Positions 1,306 through 43,826 of a stretch of 64,000 bases of DNA are shown piece after piece. Position 1 is the first letter of the stretch; every line of letters begins with the position of its first letter. Below the pieces are notes generated by a model, which saw nothing but the letters and a program-made list of their open reading frames with translations, searched no databases and was not told the origin of the DNA. Position numbers and translations under genes: made by a program. The DNA comes from an uncultured bacterium (GTDB lineage Bacteria > Babelota > Babeliae > Babelales > Vermiphilaceae), in assembly GCA_963701085.1 (NCBI GenBank), contig OY969561.1:1088001-1152000 (forward strand). The letters are read 5' to 3'.

Positions 1306-1557
1306 ATGGAAAAGAAAATAGTTGTTGTAGCATCTCTTTTGTTGTGTGTAGTCGCATTACAGGGTATGAATACTAGTAAAAAAGTTGTTATTAAGGATAG
1401 CAAAGATTTTGACAAAATTGTTCGTGCACGCGATATGTATAAAAAGAGTAATAATATTGGTATGAGTGATGTAACAAGAGGTAATAAAATTAATTGCGAT
1501 CCTATTCAATCTTCAGATACAAAGAAGCAAGACGCTACAAAAACAGAAGAAATATAA
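1306..1557 (+). CDS. Small secreted hypothetical protein
   Basis: aaggag RBS; signal peptide ending LQG|MN. Confidence 0.7.
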   Translation: MEKKIVVVASLLLCVVALQGMNTSKKVVIKDSKDFDKIVRARDMYKKSNNIGMSDVTRGNKINCDPIQSSDTKKQDATKTEEI

Positions 1558-1583
1558 AAATGTAATAAAGAGAGGAGTGAGTT

Positions 1584-2684
1584 ATGTTGAAAAAAATAAC
1601 GAACTGTTCATTACTGATATTATCATTCTTATTCATGGCGCATGGCATGAATCATGCCGCTCAATTTCTTAAATCACCTGAGGTTCAGGAGTTGGAAAAT
1701 GTTGTTGGTCAAGCTGTTAGTAATTCTGCAGTGCAGGATGAAGCGAAAAATATTTTTAATGAAATTACTCACAACACATCGAGTATATCAACGACTACTA
1801 CAACGACCACTAATTCAACTTTGCCTACAGTACCGAGTATATTAATTAATGGTCAAGAGGAGTCTAAAAAGAGTCCAGTACCTAATTTGGATTTAGGTTC
1901 CTTTTTGTCTCCCACGAGAGCTACGAGCACCTCAATACCAAAAACACCGATTCATAACGCTAGGCAACTATCACACAATGTTGCAAATGCAAAAAGAGCA
2001 CAAACAGAGCGTAGTGCACGGGCAAGTAGCAATGGAGGCTCTCAGGATGTTGTTATTAACATGGCCAATATGCCAAAAAGAAATATGTTATCTCAATCAT
2101 CACCTCCCATTCAAGATAATGCTTTAATAGATGATTTGGCAGCAATGGAGAAAAAATATTTACCTAACGAGGTATGGGGATTTGTAGCTAAAGCGAATCC
2201 TGTTCTTCACAAATTTGCACAAGATCATAATTTATCTTTGGATGATTTTTTGATGTTTGCTGATTTGAAAAATCAATTTGATGTTTCTCCGCAGGCTGTT
2301 GTTGATCAGATAAAAAATAAATTGCCTGATGATAAAAAAATAGCTGATTGGAAGCAACGTGAAAAGTATGAGAAGATAAAAAAAAATAATCCGGACAAAT
2401 ATGAAGAAATAATTTTGGAAATTTTTAAAGATGTTCTTGATCAACAAGATGGTCAAGGTAAGCCATCAGCGTTTGCTGATACGCATATTGATTTGTTAGA
2501 AGGGCAGGTTGCTGAAGATCAGAACACTAAGCGTAATTTATGGATAGCGGTGGCTGTTAAAGCAGTAATGCTTGTTGCGGGCCTTGCGGGAACTTTAGCC
2601 TGGGGTGCTTATGGTCAAGCGCATACACCGAGCACTGCACCGACTCATGCTCCAACTTTCGCTCCTACTTTTGCTCCAGTATAA
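1584..2684 (+). CDS. Secreted hypothetical protein with S/T-rich region, C-terminal TM helix and APT(H/F) repeats
   Basis: 366-aa ORF, gaggag RBS, signal peptide, hydrophobic C-terminal segment. Confidence 0.8.
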   Translation: MLKKITNCSLLILSFLFMAHGMNHAAQFLKSPEVQELENVVGQAVSNSAVQDEAKNIFNEITHNTSSISTTTTTTTNSTLPTVPSILINGQEESKKSPVPNLDLGSFLSPTRATSTSIPKTPIHNARQLSHNVANAKRAQTERSARASSNGGSQDVVINMANMPKRNMLSQSSPPIQDNALIDDLAAMEKKYLPNEVWGFVAKANPVLHKFAQDHNLSLDDFLMFADLKNQFDVSPQAVVDQIKNKLPDDKKIADWKQREKYEKIKKNNPDKYEEIILEIFKDVLDQQDGQGKPSAFADTHIDLLEGQVAEDQNTKRNLWIAVAVKAVMLVAGLAGTLAWGAYGQAHTPSTAPTHAPTFAPTFAPV

Positions 2685-3116
2685 TTATCTATATACTTTG
2701 TTGATCAATGTTGTGAGAGCTTTTTCCGTTAATGGGCCGCCATCATAGCGGCCTATTTCTTTGCCGTTGCGTAAAAATATGAGCGTTGGAATGCTGGTGA
2801 TTTTGAAATCAGCCGATAGATCTAAGAAAAAGTCGCGATTTATTTTAATGAACCTGATATTTGGCATTACTCCTGCAACGGTTTCAACGATTGGCGATAG
2901 CCGTCTGCATGGTCCACACCAATCAGCATAAAATTGGAGAATTACGTTGCCAGTGCTGCTGAATGATTTGAGATGTGTTTGTGAAGAACCGGCTGTTTTT
3001 TTCTGGTCATGTAAATAAAAGATGTTGGTTATGGGGTTGTTGTTATTGCAAAAGAGTAAACAGGTGAATATAGGTGCTAGTAAAAGCATGACTATGAGTA
3101 AGCGTTTGTTTTTCAT
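2685..3116 (-). CDS. Thioredoxin with N-terminal signal/anchor
   Basis: FYADWCGPC and SIPTLIF motifs. Confidence 0.9.
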   Translation of the reverse strand: MKNKRLLIVMLLLAPIFTCLLFCNNNNPITNIFYLHDQKKTAGSSQTHLKSFSSTGNVILQFYADWCGPCRRLSPIVETVAGVMPNIRFIKINRDFFLDLSADFKITSIPTLIFLRNGKEIGRYDGGPLTEKALTTLINKVYR

Positions 3117-40826: not shown

Positions 40827-41110
40827 GATTTTTCCTGGTTATGGGCATCTAAAAAACCTCAATATCCATTTTTGAGTATAGATTGTTGATTGTCTAATAT
40901 GCAATAATGAGCCTCTGTTTTTTTTAAATAACCGTGCTTTTTGACCAAAAGTTCTTATTAATTGGTTTGCTTTTTGACCAAAGATTGTTTTTTTAAAAAT
41001 CTGTCCATTCGAAAAATCTTATCTGATAGTATTATTGATAGCGATTTGACAGATCGCTATTTAAAAGTAAAATTGTCCAAGATATTTTCTAATGGGATGC
41101 TATAAAAATT

Positions 41111-42606
41111 TTATACATCCCATAATAAATGTAGTTCAGGTTTTGCGAGCAGTTGTTGTTCTTATCTCATTTTTGTTTTCAATAAAATCATTGTAATATT
41201 TGCGGCTATATTTATATTTGTTGGCGATGATCGTTTCGATATTGAATTCATAATACATATGTGCTATGAATGTGATCAGTTCTTTTAACAATGGCATACC
41301 ATCAGCGCTTTATTGTTGCAAAAGATGTGTGAATAATGCGCATTGGGTATGGGGTGAAGTAAGGCATAGAAAGGCATGCATTACTTGTTCTTGATTGGTT
41401 ACAGCTTTGTATAGTGGGTGATTTTTCTATTGTATAAAAGTTGTATAGTTTAGTGTATTTTTCACACGCAAGATCCACTGCTCTTTTACCATCTTTATTT
41501 CTGGAATGTATGTTCAGGCCATGAGATGTGAGAAACGGTAAGTATAGTTCGAACTTGGGAGCAACAATAGATGTTATTACTGCGCATAAATGTAGTTGAG
41601 AGTTTTTCTGTGTATCTTTTGTATGGATGAGTTTGCTTGCAATAAAGGGATTATCAGCAATAAAAGAATAGAATAAATTTAAATCATCATTATAAGCAGA
41701 AAAAAAATGAATTAAAGGCGTTGTTTGGTAATTATTGCTTTTGATTGTTGGATTGGCGTCTTTTTCTATGAGTAGTTTAATTACATTGAGTTGCTTTCTA
41801 GAGCACGCCATATGTAGAGCTGTACTGCCATTATAATTTTGGTGATTGATGGTCCTGGTATCATGAGAAAGAAGCAATTTAACACAATCTTCTTTTCCGT
41901 TACCTGCTGCTATCTGGAGTGGAATATTCCCTGATTTGTCAGATATATTTGCAGCTTGAGGCGCTTTACTGAGCATTGATGTAACTGTTGTGGTTAATCC
42001 TAGTTCACATGCTACGTGCAGTGGGGTGCAGCCTTTTGAGGTGCGTGAATTGGTATCTATATTTTCATGGGTGATTAATAATTGGTAAATTTCTTCATTG
42101 ATACTTCTCTCACTTGCCAAATAAAAAAGTGACTTTCCATCACTGTTTATGTAATTAACATCTGCATCTGCTAATAATGCATCTCGCACTGCTCTTGTAT
42201 CGTTCTTTGCTATGCCTTGAAGACACAAGTGTGTTGCATCAGAGGGGTTAGAGATATTTTTTTGCGTTGTTTCCATTGCATGGGATGTGTGGGGGATGCA
42301 TAAGAAAAGAAAAGCGAGTGATGATAGATGGTATAAACTACTATAGTTGCTCGCTTGAAATTTTTTTCCTGCGCTCGTTCTGATGCTTCGACATTGCTCA
42401 GCAGTGAACACCCGCCTGCCCTCCGAAGCCTCGGCGAAGGACGGGTTGAAGAATATCTTAGAGCGCTCGAAGACATCATCTTCAACCCAGGTTCCACTCC
42501 GTTTCACTCGGGTACCCATCAGAAGGAACTGAAGATGGGTGTAACTGACGAGCGCTAGAGAAGACATGGATAGGGCAAGTTTAATGGTTGTCATCATATA
42601 TTTCAT
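41111..42606 (-). CDS. Ankyrin-repeat protein with frameshifted C-terminus and repeat composite in its leader
   Basis: TPLHVAC and TALHMAC repeats; paralogue of 42603-43826; homologous tail LLAKPELHLLW ends at 41111. Confidence 0.8.
42371..42555. repeat. Family-A doublet with nested A, B and other hairpin inserts
   Basis: gcgctcgttctga...gagcgctcga...gacgagcgc frame with extra hairpins in both arm loops. Confidence 0.8.
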
Positions 42607-43826
42607 GAAGCACTCCATAATAAATGTAGTTCAGGTTTTGCGAGCAGTTGTTGTTTTATCTGGTTTTTGTTTTCAATATAATCGTCGTAATATTTTTTGT
42701 TATGTTTATATTTTTTGGCAACGATTGTCTCAATATTGAGCTCATAATAATTGCGTATAATGTGGACTAACAATTCTTCTGGCAGTGTATGGCCATTGGC
42801 ACTTTGTTGTTCCAACATTGTTTTGAATAATGCGCATGGTGTGTGTGGTGAAATAAAGCGTAAGAAAGCATGCATTACTTGTTCTTGATTGGTTACATCT
42901 TTATACATGTTGTGTAATTTTTCTATTGTATAAAAGTTGTATAGTTTAGTGTATTTTTCATACGCAAGATCCACCGCTCTTTTACCCTCATTATTTCTGG
43001 CATTTATATCCAAGTTGTGGGATGCAAGAAATAATAAGTAACTATCGAATTTAGGTTCGAGGATGCCTTGTATTGTTGCACATAAATGAAACTGATTGTT
43101 TTTTTGTTTATCTTTTTTATGGATGATTTTTTTTGCAACAGAGGGATTATCAGCAAGAAAAGAATAGAATAAATTTAAATCATCATAACAAACAGAAAAA
43201 AGACGAGTTAAAGGCGTTACTTGATAATTGTTTTTGATTGTTGGGTCGGCATCTTTTTCTATGAGTAGTTTGATTGTGTCAAGTTGTCTTACGTTGCATG
43301 CTTGATGTAGAGCTGTAAAGCCACCGTAATCTTGGTGATTGCTGGTCCTGATATCATGAGAAAGAAACAATGTAACACAATCTTTTTTCCCGTGATATGC
43401 TGCCACATGGAGTGGAATACTCCCTCCTCTGCTGCATATGTTTGCAGTTTGAGGAGCTTTACTGAGCATTGATGCAACTGTGGTGGTTAATCCTAGTTCA
43501 CATGCTACGTATAATGGAGTGGCGCTATAGGAGTTGCGTGAATTGATATCTATATTTTCATGAGTGATTAATAATTTGTAAATTTCTTCATTACTATTTT
43601 TCTCACATGCTAAATAAAAAAGTGACTTTCCATCACTGATTATGTGATTAACATCTGCACCTGCTAATAATGCAATTTTTACTTGGTTTGGATTGTTTTT
43701 TGCTATGCCTTGAAGGCACAATAGTGTTGCATCAGAGGGGTTAGTATTTTTTTGCGTTATTTCCATTGCGTATGATGTGTGGGGGATACATAAGAAAAGG
43801 GAGATGACCAAAGTAATATGTTTCAT
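42603..43826 (-). CDS. Secreted ankyrin-repeat protein
   Basis: TPLYVAC, IPLHVAA, TALHQAC repeats; signal peptide SYA|ME. Confidence 0.92.
   Translation of the reverse strand: MKHITLVISLFLCIPHTSYAMEITQKNTNPSDATLLCLQGIAKNNPNQVKIALLAGADVNHIISDGKSLFYLACEKNSNEEIYKLLITHENIDINSRNSYSATPLYVACELGLTTTVASMLSKAPQTANICSRGGSIPLHVAAYHGKKDCVTLFLSHDIRTSNHQDYGGFTALHQACNVRQLDTIKLLIEKDADPTIKNNYQVTPLTRLFSVCYDDLNLFYSFLADNPSVAKKIIHKKDKQKNNQFHLCATIQGILEPKFDSYLLFLASHNLDINARNNEGKRAVDLAYEKYTKLYNFYTIEKLHNMYKDVTNQEQVMHAFLRFISPHTPCALFKTMLEQQSANGHTLPEELLVHIIRNYYELNIETIVAKKYKHNKKYYDDYIENKNQIKQQLLAKPELHLLWSAS

Follow-up and report, generated by a model that had tools for sequence, protein, structure and literature searches.

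Methionine and an acidic residue after the signal peptides of effector-like proteins in a Babelota bacterium

The window analyzed here is a stretch of 64,000 nucleotides (G000:C1:1088001-1152000) from an uncultured bacterium of the family Vermiphilaceae in the phylum Babelota. Its source genome, which we label G000, is one contig of 1,198,634 bp with 37% G+C. An earlier reading of the window from its letters alone (the original prediction) reported 14 orphan or eukaryote-like proteins with methionine right after the signal peptide, 13 of them in the form Met-(D/E/N). We describe this Met junction in the window, across the genome, and in related genomes. We propose that it probably reflects a lineage-specific rule for substrates of Sec and signal peptidase I, with Met at +1 and an acidic residue at +2, analogous to the Q-rule of Bacteroidetes.

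Six-frame translation placed all 14 junction strings at the genes to which they had been assigned (eight ME, three MD, two MN, and one MT), and the count of 13 for Met-(D/E/N) was correct. Ten of the 14 proteins have no Pfam family, two contain ankyrin repeats, and one each matches WD40 and PLDc_2. In this list, a slash marks the predicted cleavage site:

1306..1557, plus strand: orphan, ...VALQG/MN; Met codon 1366-1368; no Pfam family
1584..2684, plus strand: orphan, ...FMAHG/MN; Met codon 1647-1649; no Pfam family
4474..4872, minus strand: orphan, ...SSVFS/MD; Met codon 4812-4810; no Pfam family
15884..16525, plus strand: orphan, ...GVTFG/ME; Met codon 15953-15955; no Pfam family
16541..18094, minus strand: orphan, paralogue 1 of 3, ...LTTSC/ME; Met codon 18037-18035; no Pfam family
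18098..19639, minus strand: orphan, paralogue 2 of 3, ...LTTSC/ME; Met codon 19582-19580; no Pfam family
19644..21029, minus strand: orphan, paralogue 3 of 3, ...VSTSC/ME; Met codon 20951-20949; no Pfam family
21402..22295, minus strand: WD40 protein, ...FSLTG/ME; Met codon 22238-22236; WD40 1.7e-9
30896..31186, minus strand: orphan, ...SNIWT/ME; Met codon 31132-31130; no Pfam family
33258..34439, minus strand: PLD-like protein, ...VPLWG/MD; Met codon 34376-34374; PLDc_2 5.4e-8
34610..35791, minus strand: orphan, ...NTSVA/MD; Met codon 35722-35720; no Pfam family
40041..40826, minus strand: orphan with GTG start, ...SNVWG/MT; Met codon 40757-40755; no Pfam family
41302..42618, minus strand: ankyrin protein, remnant signal peptide ...HTSHA/ME inside the ORF (open reading frame); Met codon 42276-42274; Ank_2 4.6e-27
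42603..43826, minus strand: ankyrin protein, ...HTSYA/ME; Met codon 43766-43764; Ank_2 8.2e-25

One of these junctions, SHA/ME, is present as a string but lacks a start codon of its own: no ATG, GTG, or TTG precedes the hydrophobic stretch. This copy reads TTA TAC CAT where the neighboring paralogue has ATG AAA CAT, and one has to go 111 codons upstream for an in-frame start. In this tandem pair of ankyrin paralogues (41302..43826), the downstream copy is now read through from the upstream start, which has a hydrophobic N-terminus itself.

Four exported proteins had been named as counter-examples without the Met, and all four are present in the translation of the window. Two match Pfam families (Phosphodiest and FAD_binding_4/BBE) and two match none:

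26686..28284, plus strand: exported phosphodiesterase-family protein, ...SVLG/YN
55127..56623, minus strand: FAD_binding_4/BBE protein (oxidase), ...SLDA/EN
58848..59789, minus strand: orphan, ...SINA/GS
9239..10915, plus strand: orphan, ...HIHA/VD

Across the whole genome, a crude ORF calling (longest start, with overlaps removed greedily) gave 1304 ORFs that cover 90% of G000. We scored an N-terminus as signal-peptide-like if its start codon was among the first 30 codons, its n-region had a net positive charge, an uncharged 8-residue core reached a mean Kyte-Doolittle value of at least 2.0, and the first charged residue came no more than 24 residues from the start of the core. This yielded 518 ORFs (~40%), N-terminal membrane anchors included. 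The WD40 protein of the window (21402..22295) is missed by this strict filter because its n-region has no K or R. On 100 kb of E. coli K-12, the same pipeline recovers known signal peptides (OmpA, DegP, BtuF, and fimbrial subunits), and Met precedes the first charge in 0 of the 26 signal-peptide-like N-termini there. According to parts of three papers on Dependentiae/TM6 genomes, those genomes encode many signal-peptide-bearing ankyrin, WD40, and orphan proteins and a type II secretion system (T2SS) or pilus-type system (PMC4378268, PMC6561590, PMC4776705). The gene content of G000 agrees with this, with its ankyrin and WD40 proteins, its T2SS/pilus genes, and its high share of signal-peptide-like ORFs.

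The original prediction expected Met at +1 to be enriched genome-wide, and among these heuristic signal-peptide calls it is strongly enriched. In 138 of the 518 N-termini, the first charge beyond the core comes right after a Met (ME in 101, MD in 24, and MK in 10); the second most common residue in the place of the Met is Ala, with 54. The background of Met in the proteome is 2.38% (binomial p ~1e-99 for 138/518), and Met makes up 2.0% of positions 16-35 in the 786 ORFs without a signal-peptide-like N-terminus. Elsewhere, the pattern [AGSC]M[DE] occurs at 0.00045 per residue. A cleavage scorer that used only the -3/-1 residues and polarity, and was blind to Met, put Met at +1 in 119 of 454 cases. 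If uncharged residues are allowed after Met, then the set widens to 206 motif proteins, or about one in six proteins. The residue after Met is then E in 98, D in 21, L in 16, N in 9, K in 9, and Q in 9 (48% for Glu, 10% for Asp, and 9% for Asn or Gln). Four of the 206 are false positives (an SDR, an EamA transporter, and two pilins). A more permissive detector finds 250 motif proteins, some of which are membrane-protein false positives.

The n- and h-regions of the 138 proteins were imposed by the filter, while the length and the -3/-1 pattern were not. Position -1 is A (33%), G (26%), S (15%), C (12%), or T (7%), together 93%. Position -3 is L (27%), I (18%), A (15%), T (14%), V (10%), S (6%), or C (4%), together 94%. 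Leu and Ile at -3 are more common here than at signal peptidase I sites of E. coli. At -2, His (16%) and Tyr (11%) are preferred. Position +2 is E (73%), D (17%), or K (7%), and there is little information further downstream. The Met is at residues 18-31 in the 138, and in the wider set the length peaks at 19-24 residues before Met. The signal peptides of the motif proteins start with ATG in 194 of 206 cases, and 219 of the 518 signal-peptide-like N-termini have Lys as their second residue. The third base of the codon at -1 is A32 C30 T31 G7. As this wobble base is free, the constraint is on amino acids and not on bases, and we reject a DNA- or RNA-level motif before the ATG. Over the 30 residues that follow the junction, Lys, Gln, Pro, and Asn are frequent and Gly and Ala are scarce, a composition like that of a flexible linker. 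There is no companion motif at the C-terminus, as the last 12 columns of the motif proteins carry little information.

The motif is associated with one class of proteins. A Pfam scan at 1e-5 of 205 of the 206 motif proteins (the ORF at G000 1196420-1198327 was left out) found 154 without a family, 18 ankyrin proteins, and 13 WD40-like proteins. Other motif proteins match F-box (a weaker match), C2H2 zinc fingers, PLD, PLA2_B, clostripain C11, HAD, HIT/CwfJ, or AAA, or are a methyltransferase, a thymidylate kinase, or a GalU-like enzyme. For comparison, we took the first 95, in genome order, of the 190 exported-like proteins that have neither the motif nor further membrane segments. Fifty of these have no family, one has ankyrin repeats, and none has WD40 repeats. 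The other matches include PBP transpeptidase, DivIC, MreC, TolB, ZnuA, FKBP, thioredoxin, and Cache, as well as glycosyltransferases, sugar-nucleotide enzymes, collagen-like and S74-chaperone fibre proteins, BNR, and GH1. The two groups differ in their content of ankyrin and WD40 proteins (p = 7e-5, Fisher test) and of proteins without a family (p = 1.7e-4), with both values inflated by paralogues. The original prediction would be refuted if +1 Met were equally common in exported housekeeping proteins, and this is not so: none of these are among the 205 motif proteins scanned. The original prediction also proposed that Sec-exported effectors mature with a host-like N-terminus. The part of this that stands is that Sec-type signal peptides occur on an effector-like class of proteins. 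Its further parts, release through the T2SS, NatB acetylation, and N-end-rule stabilization in the host, find no support in our results.

A hidden Markov model built from G000's own ankyrins found 44 ORFs, and 29 of these have the motif (21 by the filter and 8 by eye). Of the others, 4 have other signal-peptide-like ends and 11 are fragments of one locus (G000:C1 513502-520810), where eleven short ORFs without signal peptides stand in a row. This looks like one large gene broken into pieces. Signal-peptide-like extensions are also found on enzymes that are cytoplasmic elsewhere. Examples on G000:C1 are the thymidylate kinase (725039-725770), the GalU-like enzyme (276888-277883), a GDP-mannose dehydratase (50285-51391), and sugar-nucleotide enzymes and glycosyltransferases at ~38-51 kb and 80-88 kb. 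Two of the extended enzymes show a junction of the ...HA/ME type. These enzymes may either be exported to act in the host or be membrane-anchored.

The junction is conserved among close homologues. The PLA2_B protein of G000 (...TAQS/MENFF) has 409 homologues at 1e-10, and we examined the best 120. Among the best 60 of the 409, 47 have a signal peptide; a small residue is followed by Met in 44 of the 47, and by M-D/E/N/Q in 42. At ranks 61-120, 42 of the 52 members with a signal peptide lack the Met and end like ...EA/VD or ...RT/VD. Where the Met is present, mostly 9 to 67 residues, and more in a few members, separate it from the first conserved block. This variable spacing and the poorly conserved columns near M-E imply that the junction is maintained while the linker changes. 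The orphan family of the window at 16541..18094, which has 17 homologues and no Pfam family, shows M-E in 10 of the 14 homologues with a signal peptide. For the PLD-like protein of the window, no orthologue was found at E 1e-20 in 80 other sampled genomes of the order, which is uninformative because 1e-20 is too strict for such fast-evolving proteins.

G000 encodes one signal peptidase I (324-340 amino acids, PF10502 7.1e-22, G000:C1 661030-662004, minus strand), and we found no second S26 signal peptidase I in the genome. Its match to PF10502 is broken into two segments (profile 6-106 and 113-168), implying an insertion. G002, G008, G013, and G016 show the same split, but in other genomes of the genus the match is continuous and there are sometimes two copies. 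Copy number was rejected as the cause of the motif: in the genomes sampled, some relatives carry two signal peptidases, but the motif does not follow. The n- and h-regions, the length, and the small residues at -1 and -3 of the motif proteins are all as in Sec-dependent substrates of signal peptidase I. The Tat motif RR-x-hydrophobic is in the n-region of 0 of the 206 motif proteins. The junction is not a lipobox, as the Cys at -1 (12%) is followed by Met. However, G000 has one copy of LspA, which leaves room for a few lipoproteins with Met at +2, ...ITGC-ME being one candidate. Nor is the junction a prepilin leader, since the hydrophobic core comes first and then the Met, with Glu at +2; only true pseudopilins match PF07963. 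We also considered an exported methionine aminopeptidase as a partner and rejected it: neither of the two M24 genes has a signal-peptide-like N-terminus.

The distribution of the motif is patchy. Every genome of the phylum in our sample belongs to a single order, which comprises at least 21 families. The genus has the motif at 15-35%, a second family (f11) at 19-23%, and most other sampled relatives at 0-7%. The counts below give the number of signal-peptide-like N-termini with Met ahead of the first charge over their total, from 100 kb of each relative unless stated:

Own genome: G000, 138/518
Same genus: G006, 9/42; G007, 15/43; G010, 6/41
Same family, other genus: G012, 9/43; G036, 6/51; G041, 3/53; G040, 1/32; G045, 0/52
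Family f11: G028, 7/37; G032, 11/47
Other families: G057, 3/57; G022 (80 kb), 3/44; G020, 2/30; G056, 1/36; G030, 0/41; G021, 0/21; G019 (20 kb), 1/7

A small residue followed directly by Asp or Glu ends 18 of the 57 signal-peptide-like N-termini in G057 and 12 of the 52 in G045. In G000, 68 of the 518 have this direct form, versus 119 with Met. The G057 sample has 14 ankyrin ORFs, with the junctions ...S/EQ, ...S/QQ, ...A/ET, or ...S/DQ. Given the direct form where Met is rare, the Met of the Met-rich lineages looks like an insertion after the cut, ahead of an acidic N-terminus already favored group-wide.

Could paralogy or a repeated DNA cassette have produced the excess of Met as an artefact, with one family that shares an N-terminus counted many times? 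Some families are expanded (cluster sizes of 14, 10, 7, 6, 6, and 5), and there are 58 adjacent pairs of motif genes versus 32.5 expected. But when the mature parts are clustered (blastp, single linkage), the 206 proteins form 146 clusters, 127 of which are singletons. The strict M[DENQ] form (137 proteins) is spread over 89 clusters, the DNA that encodes the signal peptides forms 176 clusters, and shared signal-peptide DNA on unrelated mature parts is limited to 10 pairs. On these counts we reject the artefact, which is extremely improbable. It is also very improbable that the junction is made by a route other than signal peptidase I, either of lipoprotein type or with a dedicated peptidase of an unknown kind. 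Such a route would account for the Cys at -1, which includes the three TSC/ME paralogues of the window; LspA is present; Leu or Ile at -3 with Ala or Gly at -1 is faintly like a lipobox; and two classes of signal peptide on a single LepB invite a second enzyme. Yet a lipobox requires Cys at +1, where these proteins by definition have Met, and most cases of Cys at -1 have no Leu at -3 relative to the Cys. The bulky His or Tyr at -2 is typical of signal peptidase I sites. As described above, G000 has no second S26 peptidase that we could find and no Tat motifs in this set, and a prepilin would have its hydrophobic stretch after the site, not ahead of it as here.

Other explanations concern the origin of the Met as a start codon. 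The gene might make both an exported precursor and a cytoplasmic form from a working second start, or the Met might be the true start and the stretch upstream untranslated. The ATG is strictly kept, and public gene calls begin at the Met in 8 of the 60 closest PLA2_B homologues and in 2 of the 17 homologues of the orphan family. Also, AT-rich leaders can allow initiation without a Shine-Dalgarno sequence. But only 1% of the motif Mets are preceded by a Shine-Dalgarno-like sequence (at least 4 bases of AGGAGG at -18 to -4), versus 43% of the signal-peptide starts of the same genes, which is near the 48% of other exported-like starts; for other internal Met codons it is 5% (n=5682). Furthermore, the upstream stretch is fully signal-peptide-like, with its ATG start, Lys-rich n-region, and length peak; the Met is locked to a -3/-1 cleavage pattern, which a start codon does not need; Glu is rare as the second residue at ordinary ATG starts (29/518, or 5.6%); and cytoplasmic copies of ankyrin or WD40 proteins would have no evident use. 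Thus a second start codon, which the original prediction had listed as an alternative, is disfavored, and we consider a start at the Met quite unlikely. We also think it unlikely that the Met is a functionless fossil, left where a signal-peptide extension was added before the ATG of an existing gene (the bacterium's own or derived from a host). An origin of this kind would fit the GalU-like enzyme and the thymidylate kinase, where the Met is near the native start of the family, and the hydrophobic N-terminal extensions on other cytoplasmic-type enzymes (GDP-mannose dehydratase, epimerases, and glycosyltransferases). It would also fit the differing frequency of the motif between close lineages and the replacement of Met in some homologues. 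However, an unconstrained residue with a single codon should vanish fast, and the Met is kept in those 44 of 47 PLA2_B homologues, down to ~48% identity, while the columns beside it are far less conserved (the commonest residue in 8-13 of 54) and the linker changes in length. Also, Glu or Asp follows the Met in 58% of the 206 motif proteins, compared to 5.6% for Glu at real starts, and at least 89 unrelated clusters contain the motif and share the -2 His/Tyr preference. A fossil start may well explain how the Met arose, but not why it persists.

We propose instead that the junction is probably a lineage-specific rule of Sec and signal peptidase I processing. Under this rule, ~200-230 of the ~1300 ORFs (~40% of the signal-peptide-like N-termini) bear an n-h-c signal peptide of ~18-26 residues, with a c-region that ends in [L/I/A/T/V]-x-[A/G/S/C] (x often being His or Tyr) before the Met, which is mostly followed by Glu or Asp. 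The single LepB would cut before the Met, so that ~200 proteins would mature with Met-Glu or Met-Asp at the N-terminus. The rule would cover an effector-like class (ankyrin, WD40, F-box, and C2H2 proteins, phospholipases, orphans, and a few metabolic enzymes) and not the housekeeping proteins of the envelope. Selection on the amino acids keeps the junction, and the Met-acidic N-terminus would be its functional product, an identity mark of the mature protein.

Several points weigh against this rule. The signal-peptide set comes from our own heuristic on longest-ORF calls, and the cleavage sites are predicted. In the orphan family, T, K, K, or C replaces Met in 4 of the 14 homologues, in one case at 76% identity, which implies that Met is favored and not obligatory. 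No Met was seen in three of the sampled relatives (0/52 in G045, 0/41 in G030, and 0/21 in G021). Counts per 100 kb range from 4/46 to 19/48 within G000 itself and the samples from relatives are small, so single low values near 10% are weak evidence, but zeros are not. (Versus G000, Fisher's test gives p = 5e-7 for G045 and p = 7e-6 for G030, and p-values are overstated here as related genomes and paralogues are not independent.) In public gene calls, 13 of the 60 closest PLA2_B homologues (8 of these starting with M-D/E/N/Q) and 2 of the 17 orphan-family homologues have no signal peptide, and calls that start at M-E imply that the internal ATG can pass for a start in such programs. Finally, in the GalU-like enzyme and the thymidylate kinase the Met is at about the native start position, which fits an old start codon as its origin. 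On the public gene calls, we note that the database entry P0073 starts at the Met and that the upstream frame in G006 (L146) encodes a signal peptide, so at least some of the entries without signals are gene-calling choices. Public entries often begin at the internal Met, with the signal peptide lost (P0008, P0009, P0011, P0019, P0037, P0073, P0128, P0136, and others).

The window also contains T2SS/pilus-type genes at 59988..63660 on the plus strand (T2SSF, T2SSG, three N_methyl pseudopilins, and one further ORF), which are context only, as our analysis showed no link between them and the motif. A palindromic repeat, whose strands read ...PAL(A/V/T)LNLLKG/D... and ...RARPE(P/L)VEGYPRALEE.LQQVQ(D/G)ER..., has 113 six-frame matches across G000. 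The copies are often in facing pairs and are mostly intergenic, sometimes in frame within genes. The window has it near 3562..3840, within the RecD-like gene at 11798..14092 (peptide ...SRARPEPVEGCPRALEETLQQVQGERK...), and where the ORF from 63657 begins. The repeat looks like a REP/MITE-type element. Two small paralogous ORFs at 3357..3704 and 14879..15169 (MQN(Y/H)FY(L/M)YILKC(V/I)NGAYYVGHTDNI...) each adjoin a copy of this repeat; they resemble GIY-YIG nuclease-type proteins.

We could not find a Met-acidic rule described, and the nearest precedent is the Q-rule. As set out in parts of two papers, most signal peptidase I substrates of Bacteroidetes have Gln at +1, which is cyclised to pyroglutamate by glutaminyl cyclase (PMC5837995, PMC10653852). 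The two rules are alike in that a lineage-restricted single residue follows the cut of signal peptidase I in a large share of exported proteins and that the chemistry of the N-terminus matters (judging from portions of PMC5837995). The Met rule differs in that Met is combined with an acidic residue, in that it applies to one class only (~27-40% of signal peptides) and skips the housekeeping proteins of the envelope, and in that its presence varies even inside a single family of the order. G000 does not follow the Q-rule itself, as the residue at +1 is Met and Gln precedes the first charge in just 32 of 518 cases. The portions searched of PMC4378268, PMC6561590, PMC4776705, and PMC5837995, and of the Dependentiae/Babeliales literature, supplements excluded, do not mention Met after the signal peptide, and the terms methionine, TM6, and Dependentiae are absent from the searched portion of the Q-rule paper (PMC5837995). 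A modifying enzyme for the Met rule was not found: the M24 peptidases lack a signal peptide, and glutaminyl cyclase was not searched for.

Several other systems use residues near an N-terminus. In the Lol +2 rule and in the acidic lipoprotein export signal of Bacteroidetes, residues beside the mature N-terminus set the destination. If the Met junction sorts proteins, it would be similar in that the first mature residues, often acidic, would decide location. It would differ in that lipoproteins have a lipidated Cys from Lgt/LspA and these proteins have no Cys at +1; the machinery for their sorting is hypothetical. The PEXEL/TEXEL motifs of apicomplexans lie downstream of the signal peptide and are cut by an aspartic protease of the endoplasmic reticulum, after which the new N-terminus is acetylated. 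The likeness is that a short motif near the signal peptide marks host-bound proteins and that cleavage gives a defined N-terminus, but here the motif is the signal peptidase site itself, and in a bacterium. Prepilins and T2SS pseudopilins (PF07963), which are encoded in the window, also have a small residue at -1 and can have Met at +1, but they have a short basic leader, a cut after Gly, a helix after the cut, and Glu at +5, whereas here the core is before the cut and Glu is at +2. The eukaryotic acetyltransferase NatB acts on nascent chains at the ribosome. If the cut precedes the Met, 137 of the 206 predicted mature N-termini are of the NatB sequence type (Met and then Asp, Glu, Asn, or Gln). 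Unlike NatB substrates, these proteins would arrive after translation, and the relatives without Met expose Asp, Glu, or Gln.

What might the Met-acidic N-terminus do? The first mature residues could separate proteins that reside in the periplasm from those that are passed on, which would fit the clean split from housekeeping proteins. Alternatively, the N-terminus could resemble those of the host, being of the NatB type, which would fit a Met that caps an acidic N-terminus. Met is not an Arg/N-degron, while Asp and Glu are, and N-terminal Glu, Asp, or Gln is destabilizing in the eukaryotic cytosol. Resemblance to the host is weakened by the relatives that expose Asp or Glu on the same kind of protein: the ankyrins that end in a small residue and then Glu, Asp, or Gln are one observation that speaks against a universal need for a host-stable N-terminus. 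We tentatively suggest, as a possibility that we think is rather doubtful, that the Met-acidic N-terminus is an address label for ~200 periplasmic effectors that are bound for the host, and perhaps also makes their N-terminus look home-made, with its Met retained. Such a label would correspond, for soluble proteins, to the +2 rule of lipoproteins and would be a bacterial parallel to PEXEL. If it is such a label, then the Met-less lineages that expose Asp or Glu would use another label or another compartment of the host.

For annotation, it matters that gene callers sometimes start at the internal Met and lose the signal peptide. Because the trait varies between close lineages, a partner gene could be sought by comparing genomes, as with the Q-rule and glutaminyl cyclase, and the Met or the Glu would give an experimental handle on sorting or on stability in the host. 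As the rule separates effector-like proteins from envelope proteins, it would provide a list of ~200 candidates per genome. It bears on how the Dependentiae (TM6) deliver ankyrin, WD40, and orphan proteins to their hosts.

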